Of a stretch of 23,586 nucleotides of DNA, positions 1,180 to 23,586 are shown in pieces. The position numbers and the translations under genes were made by a program. The notes beneath the pieces are model-generated. The model was not told the origin of the DNA and searched no databases. It saw nothing but the letters and a program-made list of their open reading frames with translations. The DNA lies in the NCBI GenBank assembly GCA_034440375.1, contig JAWXBZ010000155.1:1-23586 (forward strand). The letters are read 5' to 3'. Positions within the stretch are counted from its first letter, which is position 1; the number at the start of each line of letters is the position of its first letter. This DNA is from Candidatus Eiseniibacteriota bacterium. GTDB lineage: Bacteria > Eisenbacteria > RBG-16-71-46 > JABDJR01 > JAWXBZ01.

Positions 1180-1614
1180 ATGAAGCTGACATCCCGGATC
1201 GACTATGGACTGCGCGCGATGCTCGACCTTGCGCTTCACGCGGGTGGCGGGCCGGTCGCGAATCACGACATCTCGCGCCGCCAGCGGATACCGGAGCAGT
1301 ACCTGAAGCAGATCCTGCCGGCGCTTCGTCGGCAGGGGCTGGTCCGAAGTACGCGGGGACCGACCGGCGGACATCGCCTCGCACGCCGGCCGGAAGAGGT
1401 CACGGTGGCCGAAGTTCTGCGGGCTCTCGAGGGGAGCCTTGAGATAGTGGAAATCGGGAAGGCGGGGAATACCGGAGGCGAGTCAGCTCGAATCCTGGGC
1501 CCTTTCTGGGTTGACCTGGCGCGGACAGTCGAGGTCTTCCTGGAATCGACCACGCTGGACGACCTCTGCCGACGAAAGCGACGCCATGACCAGTCGCTCA
1601 TCTATCACATCTAA
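1180..1614 (+). CDS. Rrf2-family transcriptional regulator, CymR-like (no Fe-S cysteine triad)
   Basis: The N-terminal wHTH signature [18 protein letters not shown] is diagnostic for Rrf2 (IscR/NsrR/CymR). There is a single Cys only (DLCRR), so cluster-less like CymR. It lies immediately upstream of, and overlapping, cysK. Confidence 0.85.
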
Positions 1615-2608
1615 CGGGGCGGGTGCCGACGGGCGCCGACAAAGCCTGGAACCGGATCGAGGCGTGACGGCCATCCACGACAGCCTGACCGACCTGATCG
1701 GCAAGACACCGCTTGTCCGATTGCATCGCGTCACGTCGGGTGTCCCCGCGGAGATCATCGTCAAGCTCGAGTCGATGAATCCGATGTCGAGCGTCAAGGA
1801 CAGGACCGGATGGGCCATGATACAGGCCGCCGAGGAATCGGGACGCTTGATGCCTGGCGCCACCATCATTGAAGCCACCAGTGGCAATACCGGCGTGGCC
1901 CTCGCGTTTGTGTCCGCCTCCCGCGGCTATCGGCTGATCCTTTTGATGCCCGATACGATGAGCGAGGGACGCGTCCGGCTCCTGAGCGCCCTCGGCGCTC
2001 GGGTCATTCTGACGCCCGGCGCGCTCGGGATGAAGGGCGCGGTCGACGAGGCGATGGCCCTGGCCGGGACAACTCCGGGCGCCTTCATGCCGATGCAGTT
2101 CGACAACCCGGCCAACCCCGAGGTTCACCGGACGACGACCGCCGAGGAAATTTGGGCCGACACGGGCGGGGAACTCGATGCCTTCGTTTCCGGCATCGGC
2201 ACGGGTGGGACGATCACCGGCGTGGGTGAGGTGTTGAAGTCGCGGCGTCCCTCGATTCGGATCATTGGCGTCGAACCGGCGGAGTCGCCGGTGTTGTCCG
2301 GCGGCGAGGGAGCCCCGCATGACATCCAGGGGATCGGCGCGGGTTTCGTCCCAAAGGTGTTGAACCGTTCGATCCTGGATGAAATCATGACGATTTCCGG
2401 TCCCGAGGCCTACCAGATGGTTCGCCGACTCGCCCGCGAGGAAGGACTGCTGGTCGGCATCTCCTCCGGCGCCGCAGTGACCGCCGCCTTACGGGTGGCG
2501 GCACGCCCTTCCATGCGTGGTCGGCGGATCGTGGCCCTGCTGGCCAGTCATGGCGAGCGGTACCTGGATGTTCCCGGCCTGTACGACGGTGATCGCGATG
2601 ACGGCTGA
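1586..2608 (+). CDS. cysK: Cysteine synthase A (O-acetylserine sulfhydrylase, PLP-dependent)
   Basis: Carries the PLP-lysine block [18 protein letters not shown] and the glycine-rich PLP-phosphate loop [12 protein letters not shown]. The [15 protein letters not shown] block is the TSGNTG substrate loop. The ATG at 1586 was preferred over the ORF-track ATG at 1511 because the homologous sequence begins near ...[20 protein letters not shown] at 1664 is an alternative start. Confidence 0.9.
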
Positions 2609-3467
2609 CCGACCCGGACTTGCTGCGCCCCCGGCAGCGGCGGACGAGGGGCTCGTCGAACGCCTCTCCCGGCTGGAATCTATCCTGGCCGGGATGGGGA
2701 CGGTGCTGGTGGCCTACTCGGGCGGCGTCGATTCGGCGTACCTCCTCCTGGCGGCGCATCGCGTCCTCGGCGATGGTGCCGTGGGCGTCCTGGCAGTTTC
2801 ACCCTCGCTGCCGGCGGCCGAACGGGAGGCGGCGATGCGGGTGGCGGGCGAAATCGGCGCGCGCCTTGAAATCGTGGATGCCTTCGAGCACATGAATCCC
2901 GACTACGTGGTCAACAACCCGAATCGTTGCTACTTCTGCAAGACCGAACTGTTCGATGTGGCGGCGCCGGTGGCCGAACGCCTCGGCCTGGCTTCCATCG
3001 CATACGGCGCCAATCGGGACGACCTCGGCGACTTTCGCCCCGGCATGGTGGCGGCCCGGGAGCGGGGGATTCGGGCACCGCTCCTCGAAGCGGACTTGAG
3101 CAAGTCGGACATCCGCGCTCTGGCCCGTGAGGCGGGGCTTTCGATCTGGGACAAGCCGGCCTTCGCCTGCCTGGCCTCGCGCATCCCGCACGGAACGCCG
3201 GTCACACCGGAAAGACTGGCCCGCGTCGAAGCGGCCGAGACGGTCCTGCGCGATTCCGGCTTCCGCCAGTTTCGCGTGCGCGACTTTGGCCGGAAGGCCC
3301 GCGTCGAGGTGGCACCCGAAGATGTCGGACGACTGCTGGCCGAACCGCTCCGGCGTGACGTCGAACGCCGTCTCATGGCACTCGGCTTCATGACGGTGGA
3401 GATGGATCCGGAAGGTTATCGCCCCGGCAAGCTGCACGGTGCGCGCGTGGAGGCTGATCCATCATGA
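2598..3467 (+). CDS. LarE-type PP-loop ATP pyrophosphatase / sulfur insertase (TIGR00268-like) with a CxxC...C triad
   Basis: The PP-loop SGGVDS lies in [15 protein letters not shown]. The LarE-family blocks [13 protein letters not shown] and [12 protein letters not shown] are present. The three Cys (CYFC plus CLASR) match the [4Fe-4S]-binding LarE subtype rather than the single-Cys sacrificial type. ATG 2598 was chosen (ORF-track ATG 2517 would overlap cysK by 90 bp). The 2598 start overlaps the cysK stop by 11 nt, and the stop overlaps the aroDE start (ATGA). Confidence 0.75.
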
Positions 3468-4966
3468 AGCCGGACCGCAATCTCGTTCTGGTCGTCGCGA
3501 ACGCCGACCCACTGGCGGCACAGCGTCAACTCACCCGTCCTCCGGTCGGCATCGATGCGTTCGAACTCCGAATTGACCGGCTGGCCCCCGAGGCACGGAC
3601 GGCCGGGCGTGTCGCGGAACTCGTCGCGGCGTCGACGCTGCCCGTGGTGGCCACCTGCCGCCCGACGGATGAGTCGGGATTCTTCGAGGGCCCGGACGCG
3701 GCGCGGTGGGAACTCCTGTCGGCCGCGCACCAGGCCGGGGCGGCCCTGATCGACGTTGAATGGAGCCGCCTGCGTGAGGATCGAGCCATGGCCAACCGCT
3801 GGCCGTCGGAACAGCTCCTCGTTTCGCATCACGCAGCCTCCGGGGCGAATCACGTCCTCGAGGACGAACTCCTGGCCATGACTGGTATCAAGGCCGCCGG
3901 TATCAAGCTGGTGGCCAACGCCACCGGTTTCGCGGATTCGATGCGGCTCGTTGAGATGACACGCCACCTGGCGCGTTCCGGTCGCCGGGCCACCTGCTTT
4001 TCCTCAGGTCGGGCGTCCCTGGCCGGCCGTGTCCTTGGCTACCTGGCCGGTGCCTGGCTCACGTATCTGGTGCCGGACGGCGACGACCCGCCGGGCCCGG
4101 GCATTCCAAATGTCTCGATGCTGCTGGATCTGTACCGACTGCCGGCGCAGGGCGACTCCGTCAAACTGCTCGGCCTGGCCGGCTGGCCTCTCGACCACTC
4201 ACTGTCGCCGCGGATGCAGAACAACGTCATCCGTGTGCTGGGTGAGCGCTACATCTATCTGCCATTCGAATCGGAGTCGATTGCCGAGGTGATCGATTTC
4301 GTCCGGCATCATGATGTGCGGGGCCTGTCGGTCACCCGGCCTCACAAGGAATCCGTGGTGCCGCTTCTCGACGGACTCGACGCGACCGCGCGGCAGGCGG
4401 GAGCCGTCAACACCGTCGTGAAGGAGGGGCCACGACTGATCGGGTGGAATACCGATCTCCTGGCCATGCGGTCGATCCTGGGCGAGTGGGGGGCCGGCAC
4501 CCTGGATCGCGCGGTGGTGATCGGCGCGGGCGGGGCGGCGCGCGCCGTCGTGGCGGCGCTGGTCGAACGGGATGTTCCGGTCCTCATACTGAATCGTGAC
4601 GCCATGCGCGGCCGTGCCCTCGCCGACGAATGTCATGCGGAGTACGGCGGGGAACCGTCCGCACTGGGCACCCACCGTGGCACGATCCTCGTCCAGGCCA
4701 CCCCGCTTGGCTCGGGTGGCGAGATTCTCCAGGTGCCGGGAGGGTTTGGCGGTGTGCGGGCGGTGCTCGACCTGGCCTACCGACCGGGCGGTACGTCACT
4801 CGAGATCAGCGCGCGTGACGCCGGCCTGGCGGTGATCAGCGGCCACGACTTTCTGGCCCGACAGGGCGCCGCGCAGTTCGCCCTGTGGACGCGTCGGCTC
4901 GTCGATCCCGGACTTTTTCGGGACGCGCTCAGCGAGGAAACGGCCACCCGCGAGGCCGCGTGCTAG
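3464..4966 (+). CDS. aroDE: Bifunctional 3-dehydroquinate dehydratase (type I) / shikimate 5-dehydrogenase
   Basis: The N-terminal half has type-I DHQase blocks (FELRIDRL; ATCRPTDESGFFEG like tiRt..EGG; LLVSHHA; Schiff-base Lys in GIKLVANATGF). The C-terminal half has AroE blocks (LLGLAGWPLDHSLSPRMQN, SVTRPHKESV, AGAVNTVV, IGWNTD, and the NADP Rossmann VVIGAGGAARAV). Confidence 0.85.
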   Translation: MKPDRNLVLVVANADPLAAQRQLTRPPVGIDAFELRIDRLAPEARTAGRVAELVAASTLPVVATCRPTDESGFFEGPDAARWELLSAAHQAGAALIDVEWSRLREDRAMANRWPSEQLLVSHHAASGANHVLEDELLAMTGIKAAGIKLVANATGFADSMRLVEMTRHLARSGRRATCFSSGRASLAGRVLGYLAGAWLTYLVPDGDDPPGPGIPNVSMLLDLYRLPAQGDSVKLLGLAGWPLDHSLSPRMQNNVIRVLGERYIYLPFESESIAEVIDFVRHHDVRGLSVTRPHKESVVPLLDGLDATARQAGAVNTVVKEGPRLIGWNTDLLAMRSILGEWGAGTLDRAVVIGAGGAARAVVAALVERDVPVLILNRDAMRGRALADECHAEYGGEPSALGTHRGTILVQATPLGSGGEILQVPGGFGGVRAVLDLAYRPGGTSLEISARDAGLAVISGHDFLARQGAAQFALWTRRLVDPGLFRDALSEETATREAAC

Positions 4967-6483
4967 GGCGGGTCGAATTGGAGGAATTGCGCCGACTGTC
5001 CCGCACCGGAAATCTCGTGCCGATCGTCCGCGAAGTACCGGCGGATCTTCTGACGCCGGTCGCGGCCTTTCTCATGATCGAAGGCGCCGATTCCGAATCG
5101 TTCCTTCTCGAGAGTGTGGAGGGGGGGGAGCGACTGGCCCGCTATTCCTTCCTCGGCCGCGATCCATTCCTGTCCGTGACGGTTCGGGGAGGGCATGTCT
5201 CTCTCCGGGATCATCGGGATCACACGTCGAGGGAGTTCGAGAGCGAGGATCCGCTGGCGACACTTCGCGAATTACTGGGGCGATATCGCGCGGCCCGCGT
5301 TCCGGGGCTTCCCCGGTTCACGGGCGGCGCCGTCGGATGGTTCGGCTATGACACCGTGCGGTGGATCGAGGAACTGCCGGAGTCGGCCGTCGACGATCGT
5401 GGACTTGCCGACGTGGAGCTCCGCTTCTTCGACACCGTACTGGCCTTCGACCATGCCAAAGGAAGGCTGCTTCTCATCGCCAATGCCCATGTCGGCGAGG
5501 CCGACGACGAGGCGGCATTCGAGGCGGCAATTGCCGATGCCAATGCACGGATCAAAGCACTCCTGACCCGTCTCTCGATCGGCCCCGGTGCGACGAACAC
5601 CCCCCGCGCGATGCCGCTTCGCGAAGCCGCCGTCACTTTGCCGGCCGATGTCCGCTCGAACATGTCCCGCGCCGCCTTCGAAGCGATGGTCGAATCGGCC
5701 CTCGAACACATCCGGGCGGGCGACATCTTCCAGGTGGTTCTCTCGCAGCGATTCGAGGTGTCGACGGTGTCCCACCCCTTCGACCTGTATCGATCGCTGC
5801 GGGCCATCAATCCCTCCCCCTACATGTACTTTCTCGGCTTCGGCCGGGCTCCGGTTGTAGGCTCTTCGCCCGAACCGCTGGTCCGGGTACAGGACGGGCG
5901 TCTCGAGTACCGCCCGATCGCCGGGACCGTGGCCCGCGGTGTGGATGACGAGGAGGACGAGCGCCGCGCGAAGGAGCTTCTCGCCGACGAGAAGGAACGG
6001 GCGGAGCACATCATGCTGGTCGACCTCGGGCGCAATGACCTGGGGCGCGTGGCCGAACCGGGAAGCGTGGAGGTCACCGACTTCATGGTGGTGGAGAAGT
6101 ACTCGCATGTCATGCATCTCGTATCGCGGCTGACCGCCCGGCTGCGCGCCGATTGCGATGCGCTTGACGCCCTGTACGCCTGTTTCCCGGCCGGCACCGT
6201 GTCGGGCGCGCCAAAGGTTCGGGCGATGGAGATCATCGAGACGCTGGAGCCAACTCGCCGAGGCCTGTATGCCGGGGCGGTTGGGTACGTCGACTTCGCC
6301 GGCAATCTTGATACGGCCATCGCGCTGCGAACGATGGTGGTGGAGGACGGCGTGGCTTACATCCAGGCCGGGGCCGGCATCGTCGCCGACAGCCGACCCG
6401 ACCGGGAGTTTGACGAGACGGTGCAGAAGGCCCGGGCGCTGGTGGTCGCCATCGAACGGACCTGCCCGGGCGGGGGGGACTGA
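4960..6483 (+). CDS. trpE: Anthranilate synthase component I
   Basis: Carries the chorismate-binding enzyme signature region: LVPIVREVPADLLTPVAAF at the N-terminus, then FQVVLSQRFE, PSPYMYFLGFG, GAVGYVDFAGNLDTAIALRTM and IQAGAGIVADS. Start assigned to GTG 4960, which overlaps the aroDE stop by 7 nt and is preceded by GAGG. The ORF-track ATG at 4885 would overlap aroDE by 82 bp. Confidence 0.9.
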   Translation: MLGRVELEELRRLSRTGNLVPIVREVPADLLTPVAAFLMIEGADSESFLLESVEGGERLARYSFLGRDPFLSVTVRGGHVSLRDHRDHTSREFESEDPLATLRELLGRYRAARVPGLPRFTGGAVGWFGYDTVRWIEELPESAVDDRGLADVELRFFDTVLAFDHAKGRLLLIANAHVGEADDEAAFEAAIADANARIKALLTRLSIGPGATNTPRAMPLREAAVTLPADVRSNMSRAAFEAMVESALEHIRAGDIFQVVLSQRFEVSTVSHPFDLYRSLRAINPSPYMYFLGFGRAPVVGSSPEPLVRVQDGRLEYRPIAGTVARGVDDEEDERRAKELLADEKERAEHIMLVDLGRNDLGRVAEPGSVEVTDFMVVEKYSHVMHLVSRLTARLRADCDALDALYACFPAGTVSGAPKVRAMEIIETLEPTRRGLYAGAVGYVDFAGNLDTAIALRTMVVEDGVAYIQAGAGIVADSRPDREFDETVQKARALVVAIERTCPGGGD

Positions 6484-6484
6484 C

Positions 6485-7138
6485 GTGGCCAACCGTGTTC
6501 GCATCAAGATTTGCGGCCTGACCACGTTGGCGAATGCGCGCCAGGTAGCCGAACTCGGCATAGAGGAGATCGGATTCAACTTCTTCCAGCCGAGCCTGCG
6601 CTACCTGGATCCGCTTCTGGCCCGGGATATTGCCCGCGGCCTCCCGCCGGAGGTGCGTCGCGTCGGCGTTTTCGTCAACGCAACGGCGGCCGTCGTCGAC
6701 CAGATCAGTGAGCTCGTCGGACTTGACCGCGTGCAACTTCACGGTGAGGAGAGCCGGGAATTCTGCCTCGCCCGTCCACGCACCGTGATCAAGGCGTTTC
6801 GGTCGTCACCCGATTTGTCGCTCGAGGTTCTGGAGTCGTTTCGGGACCTTCCGGTCCTGCTCGACGGGTATCATCCCGGGCTTCACGGCGGCACCGGACA
6901 ACAGGCCGACTGGGTCATGGCTCGTCGAATGGTTGACGCCGGGTTCCGACTCTACCTGGCTGGCGGGCTTGGGCCCGACAATCTGGCCGACGCGATTGCC
7001 ACCGTTCGCCCCGCCGTTGTTGATCTGAACAGCGGTGTGGAGTCGGCGCCGGGATTGAAGGATATTGGCCGGGTGGCGGCGGCGATCGAGGTCGTGCGCG
7101 AAGCCGGGATCGCGTCGGCCGGAGAACGGAAGCCATGA
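6485..7138 (+). CDS. trpF: N-(5'-phosphoribosyl)anthranilate isomerase
   Basis: [10 protein letters not shown]...[18 protein letters not shown]...VGVFVN...DRVQLHGEE is the PRAI pattern. GTG at 6485 sits 1 nt after the trpE TGA and is preceded by a G-rich Shine-Dalgarno. The ORF-track upstream extension (6158) lies inside trpE and was rejected. Confidence 0.8.
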
Positions 7139-8349
7139 CGAACTTGACCGATTCCGACGACCGGCGGCCCGACGCGCGGGGCTATTTCGGCCCGTATGGC
7201 GGCCGCTTCGTGCCGGAAACGTTGATGGCCGCCCTCGAGACACTGACCGCCGAATATGAGGCCGCAAGGCGGGACCCCGACTTCCTCGGCGAGCTGGAGC
7301 GTGAGTTGATCAGCTTTGCCGGGCGGCCGACGCCTCTCGATCCGGCACCGCGGCTGTCGGCCGCCTGGGGCGGCCTCGACGTCTGGCTGAAGCGGGAGGA
7401 TCTCCTTCACACCGGCGCTCACAAGATCAATAACACGATCGGCCAGATCCTCCTGGCACGACGAATGGGGAAGACGCGGATCATCGCCGAGACCGGGGCC
7501 GGCCAGCACGGCGTCGCCACCGCCACCGTGGCCGCCAAGTTCGGCCTGCCGTGCGTCGTCTACATGGGGGAGGAGGATGTCCGGCGGCAATCGCTGAACT
7601 ACTTCCGGATGAAACTTCTCGGCGCCGAAGTCGTGCCGGTGACCTCGGGTAGCCGGACGCTGAAAGACGCCACGAACGAAGCGATCCGCGATTGGGTGAC
7701 CAATGTGCGCGACACGTTCTATATCATCGGCTCGGTGGTCGGCCCGCACCCGTACCCGGTGATGGTCCGCGATTTTCAGTCAATCATCGGCCGCGAGGCC
7801 AGGGAGCAAATGCTGGCAGAAACCAGCCGGTTGCCCGACGTGGCTGTGGCCTGTGTGGGCGGCGGCTCGAACGCCATCGGACTCTTTCACGCCTTCGTTC
7901 CGGATGAATCGGTGCGTCTGGTCGGGGTGGAGGCGGCGGGGCACGGTGTCGACACCGACCAGCACTCCGCCACGCTGACCCTTGGCACCCCGGGAATCCT
8001 GCACGGGGCGCGTTCGTATCTGCTGCAGGACGACGACGGCCAGGTGCGACTGGCTCATTCCATTTCGGCCGGCCTCGACTACCCGGGCGTCGGTCCGGAG
8101 CATGCGTTTCTGAAAGACACCGGTCGGGTGCACTACGCGACGGTCACGGATGACGAGGCTCTTTCCGCTCTCCAGGAAACGGCGCGGCTCACCGGCATCA
8201 TTCCCGCACTCGAAACGGCGCACGCCTTCGCCTGGCTCCGGCGCGAGGGGCCATCACTCGGGCGTGGCACGACGGTGGTTGTCTGTTTTTCCGGCCGGGG
8301 CGACAAGGACGTGCCCCGGGTGGCCGAAATCCTCGGCGGTGGCGCATGA
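7135..8349 (+). CDS. trpB: Tryptophan synthase beta chain
   Basis: [36 protein letters not shown] (PLP lysine) and [11 protein letters not shown] identify trpB. The start overlaps the trpF stop (ATGA). Confidence 0.95.
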
Positions 8350-16606: not shown

Positions 16607-18940
16607 CTAGCCGGATTTCTTTGCGGCGGTCAACCGCTCGATCAGCCTGGCAACGCCCGGATGGTCGGGCGCGAGCGCCCGTGCCAGAAACGCCTGTTCC
16701 CTCGCTTCGTCGAGCCGTCCCTGCTGTTCCAACGCCGCGGCCAGGCCGTACAACGCGCCAGGCTCGCGCGCCGCGACCGCCAGCGAGGCGCGGAAATCCA
16801 TTTCTGCATCCACCGGACGCTGCATCTCAAGCAGCAGGAATCCCCGATTCATGCGAACCCGCTGGTCGTTCGGCTGGAGCTGTATCGCCCGTCCGTAATT
16901 TGCCAGGGCCTCGTCATGGCGTCCCTGCCGCTGGTAGCAGACGGCTAGATTATCCCAGCCGAGCGCGTACCCCGGGTCGGCCGAAAGGAGTCGGACAAGC
17001 AGCGTCTCGGCCGAGGCATAGTCCTCCCGTTTCAAGAGCACGGCGGCGAGATTGGCCACCGCGGTGCGATCGGCGGGATCGGCGGCGAGCGCGCGGCGAA
17101 AGGCCGTCTCGGCCTCGACCATCCGCCCCTCCTTCGCCAGGACGATGCCGAGATTCACCAGGGAGCGCGCGTCGGCCGGTGCGTGCTGGTCATCGGCCGA
17201 CACGATGCCGGCAACCGGATCACGCCCCGGGGGTCGCGCTGCGTGCCCATCGAACAGGGTTCCGGGCTGGAAGGCCTCCGTCAGCGGCCGTCCCTCCAGC
17301 TCATCCGGCAGCGGGAGCCCAAGTCGTGCCAGTAATGTCGGCGCGATGTCATAGACCGTGGCGGAGGTGAGCGCCGCGCCCGGCTTGACACCGGGCCCGG
17401 CGAGGATCACGACGCCGTCGAGAAGATGCCAGCGCGCCGCATCGGCCTCTTCCATCTCGGCGCTCCCCGAAAGGCGGGCCTGGCCGGAGCGAAAACCATG
17501 ATCCGAGACAACCATGATCAGGGTGCTCTCGTCCGCGGCTTCGATGAAACGACCGAGCATCTCGTCCTGGCGGCGATACGCCTCGCGGACGGCGTGCCCG
17601 AATCGACGGCCGTCGTCCGCGGCCACGCCGGGCATCAAGGGGGGCGCAAAGGGCATGAACAGGTGGCCGGTGGCATCGATAAACTCGAAGTAGACGGCCA
17701 TGACATCCGGACGCCGCGTGCGATACAGCTCGAGCCCCAGCGCCGCGTAGCTCTCGGCCGTGGCCAGCGTGTGGATGAAGTTGTTGATTCGATTCCCCTT
17801 CTCGTAGCCGCCCCGCCGCGCCGCCTTGATCTCGGCGGGTGGGACGTCCAGGTAGCGTCGTACCATCGCGTCCGTTACGGCTTCGGACGCGACCGCAAGG
17901 CTTTCGTGACCCTCGAGGAGGTCCGCCGGATAGATCACGTCGGCGTCCGGCGTGGTGGCCGATTTTCCGGCGAAAGCCAGGAATCCGAATCGATCGGTGA
18001 CAATGAATCCTTCGATCGATTCGGCGGGCCAGGTGGCCAGCCATCCGATGATGCCGCTGGAACGCCCGGCGGACGATGCCCGATTCCAGAACGCGGGCAC
18101 GCGCCGAAGACGACTGGTGGCCGGCACCGACTTGCCGGTGGCCGGATCGTTGACCATGAAATCAAGAATGCCGTGGCGGGCCGGGGAGACGCCGGTAGCG
18201 ATCGTGGTCCATATCAGCGGCGAGAGGAGCGGTTCGATGGAGCGGAGCGGCCCCGACGCACCTCGTTCGACGAGCATCGAGAGCACCGGCAACTGCCCTT
18301 CGCTGCGAAGCCGGTCGATGATGGTCCAATCAGCGGCATCTATTCCGACGAGCAGGACTTTTCCGCGGAATGGATTTGCGCCGCCCGTGGGCAGAGCTTC
18401 CCTTCCGGGGGCGGCCAGTGTCGTCACTTCGATGGACAGGAGTCGGGCGCCCGATTCATTGAACGACGGTCGCATCCGCGTGGCCAGTGTTTCCGCCAGC
18501 CGGGGTCCGTCGAGATTCTCGATCGATTGCTCGGCCGCGGCCAGGCGGAGTTCGCTCTTCAGCAGGGGAACGAAATGACCTCGCGCATTACCGCCCACCG
18601 CCGCCTGGAATCGGGGGAGATCCGCGTTGCTCACCTCAAATCGAAGGGAAAGCGCCACGACGAGCGGTGCGCCCGCTGCGGTGAAAGCGCCGAATCGCCC
18701 TTCCGCCGTGTCGGCTTCGGCCGGAAAGGCGATCGTCATCGGCCCGGCAGGCCAGAGCGACATCCTTCCCGAGAGAGGAGAGACGACGTGTCGTCCGGGT
18801 CCGAGGACTCGCGCGCCGCTTCCGGAACCGACGACTCCCCGCTGTCCGGGCGGCACGGAGCGGATGGAGAGCACGAGTAAGACCGCCCCGGCGAGCCCGA
18901 CGACCAGTGCTGGAAGGATCCAGCGGGGGCGGCGACTCAT
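16607..18940 (-). CDS. Membrane-anchored tri-domain protein: SPFH/band-7-like domain + alkaline-phosphatase-superfamily type I phosphodiesterase/nucleotide pyrophosphatase (COG3379-like) + C-terminal TPR repeats
   Basis: N-terminal anchor MSRRPRWILPALVVGLAGAVLLVLSI. Then VPPGQRGVV...LGPGRHVV.P......FEV...LP...A... follows the SPFH N-terminal pattern (V.eGerGVv..fG.....l.PGlhf.iP). The middle domain has VLLVGIDAADW, SPLIWTTIATGVSPARHGILDF, MVVSDHGF and WHLLDGVVILAGPG...VYDIAPTLLARLGLPLP (AlkP-core metal/nucleophile motifs). The C-terminal roughly 200 aa are TPR (AETAFRRALAADPAD...YQRQGRHDEALANYGRAIQLQPND...). Its stop is 11 nt before the next gene. Confidence 0.6.
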   Translation of the reverse strand: MSRRPRWILPALVVGLAGAVLLVLSIRSVPPGQRGVVGSGSGARVLGPGRHVVSPLSGRMSLWPAGPMTIAFPAEADTAEGRFGAFTAAGAPLVVALSLRFEVSNADLPRFQAAVGGNARGHFVPLLKSELRLAAAEQSIENLDGPRLAETLATRMRPSFNESGARLLSIEVTTLAAPGREALPTGGANPFRGKVLLVGIDAADWTIIDRLRSEGQLPVLSMLVERGASGPLRSIEPLLSPLIWTTIATGVSPARHGILDFMVNDPATGKSVPATSRLRRVPAFWNRASSAGRSSGIIGWLATWPAESIEGFIVTDRFGFLAFAGKSATTPDADVIYPADLLEGHESLAVASEAVTDAMVRRYLDVPPAEIKAARRGGYEKGNRINNFIHTLATAESYAALGLELYRTRRPDVMAVYFEFIDATGHLFMPFAPPLMPGVAADDGRRFGHAVREAYRRQDEMLGRFIEAADESTLIMVVSDHGFRSGQARLSGSAEMEEADAARWHLLDGVVILAGPGVKPGAALTSATVYDIAPTLLARLGLPLPDELEGRPLTEAFQPGTLFDGHAARPPGRDPVAGIVSADDQHAPADARSLVNLGIVLAKEGRMVEAETAFRRALAADPADRTAVANLAAVLLKREDYASAETLLVRLLSADPGYALGWDNLAVCYQRQGRHDEALANYGRAIQLQPNDQRVRMNRGFLLLEMQRPVDAEMDFRASLAVAAREPGALYGLAAALEQQGRLDEAREQAFLARALAPDHPGVARLIERLTAAKKSG

Positions 18941-18961
18941 TCCGACCTACTTCGCCGGCCG

Positions 18962-18976
18962 TTGATCTGGTAAACT
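18962..18976 (+). promoter_or_regulatory. Candidate sigma70-type promoter for typA in the 91-bp divergent intergenic region (TTGATC ... extended -10 TGgTAAACT)
   Basis: TTGATC at 18962-18967 overlaps/abuts TG at 18968-18969 and TAAACT at 18971-18976 (TGnTAAACT, an extended -10-like element). Called by eye only; spacing to a -35 is non-canonical. Confidence 0.2.
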
Positions 18977-19031
18977 ATCCCGCTTCATTTCACCATGATA
19001 GTCGAACAGCGAAACCGTCAGGAGAACCTTT

Positions 19032-20858
19032 GTGAGCATCGCCCGTCGTCTGGACATCCGTAATCTGGCCATCATCGCCCACGTTGACCATGGCAAGACC
19101 ACCCTGGTCGACGCCCTCCTGTGGCAAAGCGGCATCTTCCGCGCCAACCAGGAGGTGATGGAACGGGTCATGGACTCGAACGACCTGGAGCGGGAAAAGG
19201 GGATCACCATCCTGGCCAAGAACACGGCGGTGACCTACAAGGGAACGAAGATCAATATCGTCGACACGCCCGGCCACGCTGATTTCGGCGGCGAGGTCGA
19301 ACGGACCCTCAAGATGGTGGAAGGCGTGCTGCTCCTGGTCGATGCCTCCGAGGGGCCGCTGCCGCAGACCCGATTCGTCCTGAAAAAGGCGCTGGAACTC
19401 AAACTGACCCCCATCGTGGTCATCAACAAGATCGATCGAAAGGACGCCCGGATTGCCGAGGTCGTCGACGAGGTGTACGGACTCTTCATCGACCTGGACG
19501 CCGAGGAAGGTCAGCTCGACTTTCCGATTCTTTACACCGTGGCCCGAAACGGCACGGTGCGACTGACCCCGGATGGCCCTGATACCTTGCTGGGTCCCTT
19601 GTTCGATCAGATCATCGAAACGATTCCCGCGCCGTCCTATGACCCGGACGAGGGACTCCAGATCCTCATTCTCAATCTTGACTATTCCGATTTTGTCGGA
19701 CGCCTGGCCATCGGCCGCGTCGTGAATGGGACCATCAAATCGAAGGGCCCCGTCAGCCTCTGCCGCCTGGATGGCACCGTCGTCAACGGCAAGATCACGA
19801 ACCTCTACGTTTTCGACGGGCTGGAGCGGAAGGAAACCCTTGAGGCCGGCCCCGGGGACCTGGTCGCCATTTCCGGAATCGATGATGTGGCAATCGGCGA
19901 GACCATCTGCAACATCGACCGGCCCAAGGCGCTGCCGCCGATCCACATTGACGAGCCCACGGTCTCGATTCTTTTCTCGGTCAACACCTCGCCGTTCTCC
20001 GGACAGGACGGCAAATACGTCACCAGCCGCCAGCTGCGGGAGCGTCTTTACAAGGAAATCCTGACCAACGTGTCGATTCGGGTCGAGGACACCGACAGTC
20101 CCGACGCGATCAAGGTTTCCGGGCGTGGCGAGCTTCAGCTGGCCATCCTCATCGAGATGATGCGGCGCGAGGGCTATGAGCTGGCCGTCGCCAAGCCGGA
20201 GGTCATCACCAAGACGACAAACGGCGCGTTGCACGAGCCGATGGAGCATCTGATCATCGACTGCCCCGAGGAGTACATCGGCGTGGTCACCCAAAAACTC
20301 GGGCCGCGCAAGGGGCGCATGACCAAGATGACCAACCATGGCACCGGGCGGGTCCGCCTCGAGTTCCGCATCCCGAGCCGTGGCCTCATCGGCTTCCGGT
20401 CCGAATTCCTGACCGACACCCGCGGCACCGGTATTCTGAACCACCTGTTTGATGGCTGGGAGCCTTGGGCTGGCCCCATCGCCTCCCGGGTCAGCGGGGC
20501 CCTCGTGGCCGATCGCCCGGGCAAAACGACCGGCTACGCCATCGAGCATCTGCAGGACCGCGGGGTGATGTTCATCAAGCCCGGCGAAACGGTTTACGAG
20601 GGAATGATCGTGGGCGAGAACGCGCGGGCCAATGACCTGGATGTGAACATCGTCAAGGAAAAGAAGCTGACGAACATGCGGGCGTCCGGCTCCGAAGAGT
20701 CGATTCCGCTCCTCCCTCCGCGCCAGTTCAGCCTGGAACAGGCGCTGGAATTCATCAAGGACGACGAGCTGCTGGAGATCACGCCGCGGATCTTCCGCTT
20801 TCGGAAACGCGTGCTGGCCTCGAACATGCGCCCGAAGCGGCAGGACGATTCGAAGTAG
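19032..20858 (+). CDS. typA: Translational GTPase TypA/BipA
   Basis: [22 protein letters not shown] (G1), [30 protein letters not shown] (G3), and NKID, over a full 608-aa length with BipA-specific C-terminal region. The GTG start is preceded by AGGAGA at 19020-19025. Confidence 0.95.
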
Positions 20859-20875
20859 GGCCGTTACTCCGGCCC
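20858..20875. terminator. GC-rich hairpin (6-bp stem gggccg/cggccc, 6-nt loop) covering the 5-bp gap between convergent typA and the NYN-LOTUS gene; possible bidirectional terminator
   Basis: Direct reading: gggccg ttactc cggccc. The stem overlaps the typA TAG (20856-58), and the TAA of the minus-strand gene (20864-66) lies in the loop. No U-tract follows on either strand. Confidence 0.3.
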
Positions 20876-21964
20876 CATCTCGTCGTCACTGATCGGCGCG
20901 GGTGTCGGGGCTCCTGTACGGTACATCGCTTCCTCTTCCTCCTCGACATCCGGCAGGCCGAGTTCGCGGGCGCGGCGGCGCCATTCCTCCTGCGGGTCGA
21001 CGGCGGTCGGGCCGAACGCCTGATTGGCGGGACGATAACTGCCCTGGGAACTCCCCGAGCCGTAGCCGCCGTTGCCGCCACCGTGTGACGACAGTCCGCC
21101 GGAGTGTCCGCCGTTGGAAGGTGAACCGGGCAGGATTCCCATGGCCGCGTTGATCGCCGCCGCGGCGGCGGCGTGGTGTTCGGGCAGATTCGTCACGGCC
21201 CGGCCGGCCAGCACATCCTTCACGCCGCCATGGTTCCGGTTCAATTTGCACACTCGATAGCCGTCCGTTCGCTGTTCCTTCATGAGAATGCCGTCGCGGA
21301 TGGCATCGGCCACCAGCTGTCGCGCTTCCTCTTCCTGAAGGCCCGGGAATTCGCTGGACGTGGACATGGCCGCCGAGATGTACTTGAACGTGATGAACGG
21401 CTTCGAGCGCTCGAGGCGATCGCAGAAGCGGACGAACGAGGTGAAGCGTTCGGTGGCCCCAACCGGCTCGAAGACCAGCGGGTCGAAGTTGGAGCCGGCC
21501 GCCTCGACGAGATCGTTGGACACCGAGCCGGGTACGCCGGCGATGATCACCGTCTTGCCATAGCGGTTCCGCGCGATCGTGACGGCCCGGATGAAGTGCC
21601 GGTCGCCGGTCATCAGGACAAAGGTCTTCACGAACGGACGGTCCAGGAAGGTTTCGAATATATCCATGAGCATTTCCATGTCGGCGCCGCTCTTCTTGCT
21701 GTCGCCCATCTTGTGGGCGGCGACGTTGATGGCGGTGATGCCCGACACCTGGAGATCGCGCTGCACCCGATCGGGGTGTTCGCTGAAATCGGCGTAGGCC
21801 CGCGACAGGGTGACCAAACCGTGTTTGCGGGCCTTTTCCATCAACATCTGGCCGCCGACTTCGCGTCCATAGGTGTTGAGCACGCTGTAACGAATATTTT
21901 CAAAGTCAATGAAGAGAGCAACCTGTTCCTGGGGGCGCTCGGTTTCGGAAATGTCACCGGTCAT
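20864..21964 (-). CDS. NYN-domain (LabA-like) predicted RNase fused to OST-HTH/LOTUS RNA-binding domain, with Gly/Ser-rich and acidic C-terminal tail
   Basis: VALFIDFENIRYS...LSRAYADF...FVLMTGDRHFIRAVTIARNRYGKTVIIAG is the NYN/LabA pattern (Asp-rich PIN-like site). FVRFCDRLERSKPFITFKYISAAM...EARQLVADAIRDGILMKEQRTDGYRVCKLN matches OST-HTH/LOTUS. The tail is GGHSGGLSSHGGGNGGYGSGSSQGSY...DVEEEEEAMY. Start set at ATG 21964 (14 aa before the domain). GTG 22042 (ORF track) is an alternative giving a 26-aa longer N-terminus. Confidence 0.7.
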   Translation of the reverse strand: MTGDISETERPQEQVALFIDFENIRYSVLNTYGREVGGQMLMEKARKHGLVTLSRAYADFSEHPDRVQRDLQVSGITAINVAAHKMGDSKKSGADMEMLMDIFETFLDRPFVKTFVLMTGDRHFIRAVTIARNRYGKTVIIAGVPGSVSNDLVEAAGSNFDPLVFEPVGATERFTSFVRFCDRLERSKPFITFKYISAAMSTSSEFPGLQEEEARQLVADAIRDGILMKEQRTDGYRVCKLNRNHGGVKDVLAGRAVTNLPEHHAAAAAAINAAMGILPGSPSNGGHSGGLSSHGGGNGGYGSGSSQGSYRPANQAFGPTAVDPQEEWRRRARELGLPDVEEEEEAMYRTGAPTPAPISDDEMGPE

Positions 21965-22095
21965 CGGTTGTCGTGTCCTCTCATCGGGGGTCGTTACCCT
22001 GGTTATCGTGTGTCCGACGGCCGGAGCCGGAGGATTCAACACGACCTAAGGGGAGCAGCCGGTTGCCCGGCCGAAACAGTTTGAGGTGTCGCTTG

Positions 22096-22284: not shown

Positions 22285-23586
22285 TCAGGCGATCGTTCGA
22301 TCAGGCAGACGGCTGAGCTGATCAAGTTGATCGGCCCGCCTTCGATCGGTAACAGCGCCATCGGGAGGAATCTTCCGATCCGGATTCCCGATGCCCGACA
22401 CGAGCGATTCCGTCAGGTCGGCGCGCACGCGAAGGCTCCTCGCCAGGTGGAGTCGGTGATCGAGCCGTTCGTGAATCTCGATCGCCTCCTCGATCGCGAT
22501 CCTGCCGGCGGCGATGTTTCCCTGCGCGGCCTCGCAAACGGCCGAAAGGCGGAGCCCGTAGCCCAGGTATCCCTCGGCTCCTCTTGCGCGCGTCAGACGG
22601 AGCAGTTCGTCGAGAATCGGGCGCGCCTCCTCCGGGCGCCCGCTCCGGATCGCGATCTCGGCCAGGACCGGAAGGCGCGTGATCATCACCACGAAGTTGT
22701 CGCCGGGTTTCGGGAGAGTGGGATCCGAGATGACGAGGGAAGCGCCGGCAAGGTCTCCGGCCACGAGGTGTGCCGAAGCCACATTGGCTGCCATCAGGTG
22801 ATGCATCAACCACTGGCCGGTCAGGATCACCCACTCCCGTGTGCGTGCGGCCATGGCACGCCAGCCGTCGTCACCAAGTTCGGCCAGAGCGAGTGTCTGG
22901 AAGCCACCCAGGATGGCCGCCAGCCGCCATTCACCGATCGTTTCGGCGAGGGCCAGGCAGCGCTTCCCGGCGGCCACGGCCTCGGGGAGTCGTCCGCCAA
23001 AAAGGCAGGCGTCGTTCTCGACAAAGTCGGCCCAGGCGATCCGGTCGCGGGCGCCGATCTCGTGCCCGATCCGGCGATCGAGGGCCGCCTCGGCGACGGC
23101 CTCGCGCCACTGCCCGACCATGAAGGCCGCCTCACCCAGGAATTCGTGCCCGAGGGCGGAGGCCAGGGGATGGTTGTGAGACTCCCCGAATTCGACGGCC
23201 TCACGTGCGTACTTGCGGCTCATCGGGAAGTCGCCCAGGTGCTGATAGGCGCCCGCAAGAAAAGTCATGATGGTCGTCATGGTACCCGGGAGCTTGTCGA
23301 CTTCTGCATGGCGTCGCGCCTCCTCGAGCAGTTCGACCGACCGCCGGTGCTCGAACACGTAATGATGGTAACGGGCGATGGTTCCGAGCGTCCGTGCCGC
23401 CTGGTCCGGCTCGGCATCGCGATCGAGCCGCGCCATGACCCCCTCGAGGTGGGGAAGGCCGCGGACGTCTCCGATCGAGGCATAGTGCTGACCGATGTCG
23501 ATCTCGATGTCGGTTCGCTCCCGTTCATCCGCCACATGGGGGAGCGCGCTGACCAGTGCCTGCGCCGCGGCGGCGGAGGCGCCCGA
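22285..23586 (-). CDS. TPR-like/helical-repeat protein (regulator- or STAND-sensor-like C-terminal region); N-terminus lies beyond the window edge
   Basis: Long alpha-helical repeat-like sequence (…AYQHLGDFPMSRKYAREAVEF…, …GQWREAVAEAALDRRIGHEIGARDR…, …LAEIAIRSGRPEEARPILDELLRL…). The ORF-track start is a GTG at 23535, but the frame stays open with no stop through 23586 (…SGASAAAAQALVSALPHV-ADERER…), so the true start is probably outside the window. No catalytic motif was recognised. Confidence 0.45.
   Translation of the reverse strand, partial: SGASAAAAQALVSALPHVADERERTDIEIDIGQHYASIGDVRGLPHLEGVMARLDRDAEPDQAARTLGTIARYHHYVFEHRRSVELLEEARRHAEVDKLPGTMTTIMTFLAGAYQHLGDFPMSRKYAREAVEFGESHNHPLASALGHEFLGEAAFMVGQWREAVAEAALDRRIGHEIGARDRIAWADFVENDACLFGGRLPEAVAAGKRCLALAETIGEWRLAAILGGFQTLALAELGDDGWRAMAARTREWVILTGQWLMHHLMAANVASAHLVAGDLAGASLVISDPTLPKPGDNFVVMITRLPVLAEIAIRSGRPEEARPILDELLRLTRARGAEGYLGYGLRLSAVCEAAQGNIAAGRIAIEEAIEIHERLDHRLHLARSLRVRADLTESLVSGIGNPDRKIPPDGAVTDRRRADQLDQLSRLPDRTIA

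Follow-up and report, generated by a model that had tools for sequence, protein, structure and literature searches.

A membrane-anchored protein combining a coiled-coil-less SPFH domain, a predicted NPP/PafA-branch phosphoesterase and a TPR tail in a Candidatus Eiseniibacteriota genome

Contig JAWXBZ010000155.1 of a Candidatus Eiseniibacteriota bacterium (assembly GCA_034440375.1), whose 23,586 nucleotides are called the window below, encodes a 777-amino-acid (aa) protein with an unusual set of domains. From the N- to the C-terminus it consists of a transmembrane (TM) anchor, an SPFH1/2 domain, a catalytic domain of the alkaline phosphatase (AlkP) superfamily of the nucleotide pyrophosphatase/phosphodiesterase (NPP) type, and an array of tetratricopeptide repeats (TPRs). 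Pfam, PDB profile searches and AlphaFold2 (AF2) models agree on this order and uphold the tri-domain membrane protein proposed in an earlier note on the same DNA. It is a new domain architecture assembled from known domains. We consider it likely that the protein is a catalytically competent phosphoesterase of the NPP/PafA branch, anchored through its SPFH part at the periplasmic face of the cytoplasmic membrane and carrying a TPR tail. The gene and its parts are the following:

16607..18940, minus strand: the target gene, a complete ATG-to-stop open reading frame (ORF) of 777 aa (ORF list, Pfam, homologues, AF2).
18866..18919, minus strand: predicted signal-anchor TM helix, aa 8–25, following MSRRPRW (helix 8–25 in both AF2 models).
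18413..18865, minus strand: SPFH1+SPFH2 domain of the prohibitin/HflC type, aa 26–176 (PF01145, family profile, Foldseek).
18362..18412, minus strand: flexible linker between SPFH2 and AlkP, aa 177–193 (predicted local distance difference test score, pLDDT, below 50 at aa 182–190).
17252..18361, minus strand: AlkP-superfamily catalytic domain, NPP/PafA branch, aa 194–563 (PF01663, PDB profiles, AF2).
18221..18223, minus strand: codon of Ser240, the predicted nucleophile (alignment, invariance, helix start).
17171..17251, minus strand: second flexible linker, aa 564–590 (pLDDT below 50 at aa 564–568 and 570–585).
16616..17170, minus strand: TPR solenoid, aa 591–775, with five helix pairs and a capping helix (Pfam; eleven helices in AF2).

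Public data contain a partial protein 100% identical to the target and about 190 homologues, which establishes a genuine gene. The full-length AF2 model, built on 46 full-length relatives, has a mean pLDDT of 89.7 and a predicted template modelling score (pTM) of 0.78; invariance counts given below also refer to 46 relatives. PF01145, PF01663 and several TPR families are matched in the target. An NCBIfam scan of the protein returned nothing specific, only sub-threshold TPR and PhnA-like matches.

The catalytic domain is matched by PF01663 (Phosphodiest) over aa 195–487 with 116.1 bits against a cutoff of 23. This match covers profile positions 1–225 of 342, the remainder being interrupted by a mostly non-regular insert of about 70 residues (approximately aa 315–383). 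Catalytic residues were mapped by profile alignment of the domain to Xanthomonas NPP (Xac NPP; 2gsn) and PhnA. D201 aligns to the first metal-binding Asp of both proteins, D422/H426 to the 'VDEAGH' pair and D480/H481 to 'SDHG'; the matching ligands of Xac NPP we take to be D54, D210/H214 and D257/H258. H505, a putative further metal ligand, aligns with the conserved His of phosphonate monoester hydrolase (PMH). Each of the residues D201, S240, D422, H426, D480, H481 and H505 is invariant (46/46), as are the motifs GIDAADW, WTTIATG and DHG. The metal ligands of the AlkP core, on which the earlier note had made its proposal depend, thus align at D201, D422/H426 and D480/H481, with H505 as an invariant residue in a presumed ligand role; the predicted two-metal set (Asp; Asp-x3-His; Asp-His; His) is complete.

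The three motifs had been recognized before, with the Thr of WTTIATG proposed as the nucleophile. The motifs stand, and the nucleophile has to be reassigned. T90 of Xac NPP and T64 of PhnA align to Ser240 of 'EPLLSPLIW', 10 residues before G250, and the candidate T245 of 'WTTIATG' was therefore rejected. In the mutant PDB chains 7mw8 and 3t02 the residue aligned to Ser240 is Ala, which marks this column as the nucleophile position, and Ser240 is the first residue of helix 240–249 in the AF2 model, the usual place of the nucleophile in this superfamily. Ser occupies the column in 139/139 family representatives in which the motif was found. As Ser is also the nucleophile of E. coli alkaline phosphatase and of cofactor-independent phosphoglycerate mutase (iPGM), the change would leave a hydroxyl nucleophile in the same place of the structure.

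Complete and invariant as it is, this catalytic set argues strongly, at the level of sequence, that the domain is an active enzyme and against a pseudoenzyme. The opposite view would liken the protein to PbgA/YejM: the AlkP domain would be a ligand sensor in a non-catalytic scaffold or regulator, with SPFH and TPR parts recruiting a protease such as FtsH. We find this very unlikely, since the invariance of the seven catalytic and metal residues together with Ser in all 139 representatives is a pattern typical of active enzymes, the SPFH part has no cage-forming coiled coils (see below), and there is no FtsH gene near the target. PbgA/YejM and LtaS/EptA, which work as transferases or lipid sensors, sit in the membrane by polytopic (5-TM) anchors and bind at most one metal. 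They also belong to the sulfatase-type branch, whereas the target is NPP-type, with a predicted complete two-metal site and a single TM helix followed by SPFH.

Fold comparison of the AlkP domain ranks ENPP7 first (27.1), followed by PafA (26.8), Xac NPP (26.7), ENPP4 (26.5), ENPP6 (25.9), sulfatases (at most 24.8) and PhoK (24.2). Foldseek agrees with the ranking, and the core fold is closest to NPP-type structures. PDB 5too, among the PafA matches, is a T79S/N100A/K162A/R164A mutant. Diesterases and NPP-like monoesterases are equally near by fold, which makes 'phosphoesterase' the safer term: the domain type suggested originally is correct, but the name 'phosphodiesterase' goes too far, as diesterase activity is not established and the monoesterases PafA and PhoK are equally close. 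In comparison with the NPP/ENPP group (Xac NPP; ENPP1–7), which uses Thr, the target has a predicted Ser nucleophile, a Phe in place of the phosphoryl-contacting Asn (HGIxxN) and the insertion of about 70 residues. Identity to these proteins is 12–23%, and an SPFH/TPR fusion is found in none of the solved NPP/ENPP matches. In PafA and PhoK a Thr nucleophile is accompanied by a Lys/Arg/Asn set that confers monoester specificity, and SPFH and TPR modules, both present in the target, are absent from these two enzymes.

The SPFH assignment rests on several independent lines. PF01145 (Band_7/SPFH) matches aa 28–175 with 36.8 bits in the whole target (cutoff 23.6) and with 41 bits when the N-domain is scanned separately; individual matches were obtained in the N-domains of 15 of 20 relatives. 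Searched against the PDB, the family N-domain profile finds prohibitin (2.6e-8) and HflC (4.4e-8), then HflK, QmcA, erlin and stomatin, so that the top of the list consists of SPFH proteins only. These alignments begin at the TM helix and extend through SPFH2, those to prohibitin and HflC stopping at its boundary with CC1 (about residue 180–187 for prohibitin). A separate AF2 model of aa 1–192 reached a pLDDT of 91.6, and all of its top 50 Foldseek matches in the PDB have the SPFH fold (best TM-scores, TMq, 0.63–0.70), including HflC, PHB, stomatin, erlin, flotillin, QmcA and the MVP shoulder. Profile searches and the modelled fold of the N-domain therefore both support the SPFH domain, whose absence from profile searches had been named in advance as grounds for abandoning the proposal.

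In classical SPFH proteins a long coiled-coil helix (CC1), a second coiled coil (CC2) and a C-terminal tail follow SPFH2 and build the cage wall and cap (PMC12624060). K177 is the first CC1 residue of PHB1, and assembly suffers most from mutations in CC2 (PMC12624060). The SPFH module of the target ends at about aa 176 without CC1/CC2 coiled coils, AlkP starts at aa 194, and the linker of aa 177–193 occupies the place where classical SPFH proteins begin the CC1 helix. The protein thus has an SPFH domain but lacks a defining feature of cage-forming SPFH proteins. HflK/HflC and prohibitin 1/2 share with it an N-terminal TM helix followed by SPFH1 and SPFH2, as well as the predicted orientation; unlike them, it has no CC1, CC2 or C-terminal tail, the elements that make up wall and cap in all SPFH cages solved so far, and its SPFH2 leads into a disordered linker and then the enzyme, with no protease or NfeD partner evident. 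The general statement that SPFH domains organize membrane microdomains and regulate proteases, which the earlier note had invoked, is consequently not directly transferable to this protein, because in solved complexes such behaviour depends on cage assembly, for which CC1/CC2 are needed. Lacking these coiled coils, the truncated module is probably a membrane-proximal anchoring or clustering device and not a classical closed cage. When other enzymes joined to the same truncated SPFH module were sought with the N-domain profile, the search, limited by its word index, gave 2 matches.

The anchor helix of the target has a mean hydropathy of 2.57, and its N-terminal flank (MSRRPRW) a net charge of +4. 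Across 20 N-domains the flanks average +2.55 on the N-terminal side and +0.45 on the C-terminal side. A positively charged N-flank next to a near-neutral C-flank predicts an N-in/C-out signal anchor, and all of the protein beyond the helix would then lie outside the cytoplasm. A 2009 survey of prokaryotic SPFH proteins describes HflK/C as facing the periplasm and suggests the same for bacterial prohibitins. Since the closest SPFH similarity of the target is to prohibitin/HflC types with an N-terminal TM helix, this suggests a periplasmic topology here as well.

The C-terminal tail is matched by TPR families over approximately aa 585–760 (TPR_1, 80.7 bits; TPR_2, 75.6 bits; TPR_19; others), and its PDB matches include consensus-TPR proteins and the TPR part of OGT.

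When the AlkP-domain profile was run exhaustively with HMMER against representatives of clusters at 50% identity, 4,870 of them matched at E ≤ 1e-30 and 12,964 at E ≤ 1e-10. Of the best 150 of the 4,870, 49 have an SPFH domain, 20 a long N-terminus without profile match and 67 a short leader, and 14 are fragments; a tail of at least 150 aa follows AlkP in 140 of these 150. The 120 closest matches divide into 66 with SPFH, 8 with a long N-terminus without profile match, 36 with a short leader, 5 other short forms and 5 fragments. Among the 36 short leaders, 21 are lipobox-like and 15 hydrophobic. Two long proteins, P0123 (1351 aa) and P0137 (1276 aa), have a different N-terminal architecture, with AlkP beginning at about residue 615–680 and several matched stretches. 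The survey of homologous architectures proposed earlier thus recovers SPFH in a large part of the relatives and shows that the conserved core of the family is AlkP+TPR, SPFH being one of two alternative membrane-anchoring solutions. It is this interchange with short signal-peptide or lipoprotein-like leaders that leads us to read the SPFH part as an anchor or organizer. As relatives without SPFH have lipobox-like or hydrophobic leaders, the AlkP-TPR core appears to be extracytoplasmic across the family. The view of an extracytoplasmic, membrane-tethered enzyme is therefore consistent both with the positive-inside N-flank of the target and with the lipobox-like or hydrophobic leaders of its relatives.

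A distribution scan of one genome per GTDB species located relatives in at least 201 species. The 80 loci listed are all from metagenome-assembled genomes (MAGs) and belong to Eisenbacteria, Krumholzibacteriia, Latescibacterota, several Acidobacteriota classes and a few other lineages. This is a large, uncharacterised family of uncultivated soil and sediment bacteria, the members of which bear the generic annotations 'alkaline phosphatase family protein', 'TPR repeat protein' or 'PilF/TadD' in the source records.

Taken together, these features allow a mechanism to be proposed. The signal-anchor helix and the prohibitin/HflC-type SPFH1/2 module would hold the protein on the periplasmic face of the inner membrane, where the SPFH domain would keep the enzyme near the membrane surface and may also cluster it. 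The Ser240 nucleophile would act with two metals (M2 bound by D201/D480/H481 and M1 by D422/H426/H505), and a phosphate ester or anhydride would be hydrolysed through a covalent phospho-seryl intermediate. A flexible linker would connect the enzyme to the five C-terminal TPRs, which most likely serve in partner binding or self-association. We infer activity, metal identity, substrate type and oligomeric state alike; candidate substrates would be phosphodiesters or monoesters, either a membrane-proximal lipid or glycan phosphate or compounds used in phosphate scavenging.

Several points weigh against this proposal. No characterised homologue is close, the best PDB identities being the 12–23% given above. 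The topology of the target is a prediction only, and the active-site geometry and the assignment of H505 rest on alignment and invariance; in the alignment to iPGM, H505 is offset from the last His ligand by 3 residues, in a gapped region. At the place of the 'HGIxxN' Asn, which touches the phosphoryl group in NPP and PhnA, 45/46 relatives have Phe261, the fifth residue after His256; the fourth is Asp260 in 39/46 and Asn in 6/46. With the contacting Asn replaced by Phe261, transition-state stabilization must differ from that of NPP/PhnA. In addition, genomic context varies between phyla and offers no clue to the substrate.

Tandem co-oriented pairs of SPFH-AlkP-TPR paralogues, with a 3-bp gap or a 4-bp overlap between the two genes, occur at 4 loci:

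L011, 669–5846: tandem paralogue pair.
L023, 7452–11959: tandem paralogue pair.
L029, 1053–6473: tandem paralogue pair.
L087, 4388–9565: tandem paralogue pair.

Like the heteromeric HflK/C, PHB1/2, erlin1/2 and flotillin1/2, the family thus has paired paralogues in some genomes, which by analogy hints at hetero-oligomers. One may further speculate that the truncated SPFH module still forms membrane rings or arrays, alone or as hetero-oligomers of tandem paralogues, with the TPR array replacing the coiled-coil wall and the phosphoesterase sites lining the interior or rim. We consider such an assembly improbable, if somewhat less so than the non-catalytic scaffold discussed above.

The neighbourhood of the gene in the window comprises the following features:

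1511–10311, plus strand: aromatic amino-acid biosynthesis cluster.
11782–13944, minus strand: large PMT_2 (GT-C, ArnT/PMT-like) glycosyltransferase with C-terminal TPRs, the third gene downstream of the target.
15210..16595, minus strand: gene with a UshA-like domain and a multihaem cytochrome c554-like domain (NF041198, 231 bits; PF13435).
18941..19031, no strand: divergent intergenic region of 91 bp between the target and typA (bipA), the presumed promoter (from the sequence).
19032–20858, divergent from the target: TypA/BipA.
20864–22042, minus strand: NYN-domain protein of 392 aa, upstream of typA.
22285–23535, minus strand: TPR/MalT-like protein, upstream of typA.

A scan of the 91-bp spacer found no sigma-70-like site, a consensus that may not apply to this phylum. 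The UshA-like/cytochrome gene begins 11 bp past the target stop codon, no terminator was found in a scan of the gap, and the two genes are probably co-transcribed. This arrangement is limited to the closest lineage (L001 and L002/L003, the latter two on the same contig). The N-terminal motif region of the UshA-like protein, IRATGSLEGTLEP, is devoid of D-x-H, the motif that a UshA-like nucleotidase should show, and the protein contains a CGC/CGU redox-type motif and haem-binding CXXCH sites. Judging by these motifs, its role is probably a redox one rather than that of a nucleotidase. A nucleotide-degrading operon formed with this gene was rejected on the same grounds, the neighbour being lineage-limited, without D-x-H and equipped with a redox motif and CXXCH sites. 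The signalling-nucleotide role envisaged in the earlier note is unsupported; the gene downstream resembles one for a redox (seleno)protein. The window protein reads 'EPCGCKDGLGG', the Cys form of a selenoprotein family; the orthologues at L001 (position 10609) and L002 (position 10844) have an in-frame TGA in the same column ('PCG*KEGLGG' and 'TCG*KDNLGG'), after which the frame continues. By this reading they are probably selenoproteins (NF041198 'PCGU' family) that gene callers break up into a small ORF and a 'cytochrome' gene.

Beyond the UshA-like gene, an acyl-CoA dehydrogenase gene and then the PMT_2-TPR glycosyltransferase gene lie on the same strand; the listed ORF start of the latter overlaps the 3′ end of the former, and its real start is probably further in. 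The aromatic cluster encodes two PALP enzymes, a fused dehydroquinase-shikimate dehydrogenase, anthranilate synthase I, PRA isomerase and tryptophan synthase alpha, as well as a DAHP synthase with a ferredoxin-like domain; the PALP gene at 7135–8349, beside trpA, is probably TrpB. Genes of this kind are normal chromosomal surroundings, not part of a mobile element. Synteny of the NYN gene extends to L001, L002 and L038, and at L002 a 1199-aa Ser/Thr kinase-AAA-TPR protein is encoded just beyond it. Membership of the target in an anti-phage defence system was rejected, as a PADLOC scan of the target and three neighbouring proteins gave no defence-system match.

De novo ORF clustering at 81 loci revealed clade-specific synteny and no universal gene neighbour of the family. 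An Eisenbacteria paralogue group has pabB-pabC-target convergent with phoU-pstB-pstA-pstC-pstS-phoR(-phoB) (L084, 10414–18379; L086, 10651–16331), and two other MAG lineages (L008 and L013) have pst genes at a distance of 1–4 kb upstream of the target. Such contexts would fit a Pho-response scavenging function, in which an exported NPP/PafA-like enzyme frees phosphate or phosphomonoesters from environmental organophosphates and its membrane tethering keeps the product close to the Pst transporter. We regard this as possible but hold it tentatively. The pst genes converge on the target and are not co-transcribed with it, the linkage is confined to a few lineages and to a paralogue other than the orthologue of the window gene, and in pst-linked genomes the target appears to be co-transcribed with pabBC and not with Pho genes. 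The window gene itself sits between typA and the UshA-like/cytochrome gene, with no pst genes nearby.

Other clades present a different picture. About 25 Krumholzibacteriia/Latescibacterota species share an arrangement in which RmlD and GT2 genes point away to the left of the target, iPGM follows the target in its own direction, and a leftward PMT_2, a rightward DegT and a leftward M1 peptidase gene come next. The iPGM gene lies on the same strand after the target at L083 (10313–11848) and 29 other loci, at a distance of tens of bp where checked; its product is another AlkP-superfamily enzyme. In Acidobacteriota the order is metK-ahcY-target-HEAT, adjoining lptFG. An envelope-remodelling function, about as probable as scavenging and entertained with the same reserve, would make the protein a hydrolase of lipid-headgroup or undecaprenyl-linked phosphodiesters, or a phosphotransferase resembling LtaS/EptA/BcsG, with the SPFH domain bringing the active site to the membrane surface and the TPR array serving as a dock for envelope-assembly partners. 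The hints from context are weak and conflicting, pointing to Pho in one group and to envelope glycans in others.

Literature on SPFH-AlkP, SPFH-enzyme-TPR, COG3379, PF01663+TPR and Band_7 fusions yielded no description of this architecture, its incomplete coverage making this an absence of evidence, and the 2009 survey mentions no phosphatase or TPR fusion among 12 prokaryotic SPFH subfamilies. The combination can therefore still be called undescribed within the literature searched, but it is not rare, as thousands of members stand in databases under generic annotations. Structurally studied SPFH proteins are stand-alone scaffolds, coiled-coil cages that enclose separate clients, whereas the SPFH module of the target is fused to an apparently active enzyme. 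The surprise lies in an SPFH core without coiled coils fused to its presumptive 'client' enzyme and conserved across several phyla.

As a natural experiment, the family could reveal what an SPFH core can do unaided, be it membrane-surface anchoring, lipid binding or lateral clustering. Its recognition could improve the annotation of proteins now labelled only as 'alkaline phosphatase family' or 'TPR repeat' proteins. If the ring or array described above were real, an SPFH scaffold and its client enzyme would for the first time be seen joined in one polypeptide, forming a confined membrane patch for the processing of phospho-lipids or glycans. More broadly, the family represents a large branch of the NPP/PafA group with a predicted Ser nucleophile, present in abundant uncultivated phyla, where it may contribute to organic-phosphorus turnover or envelope biology.

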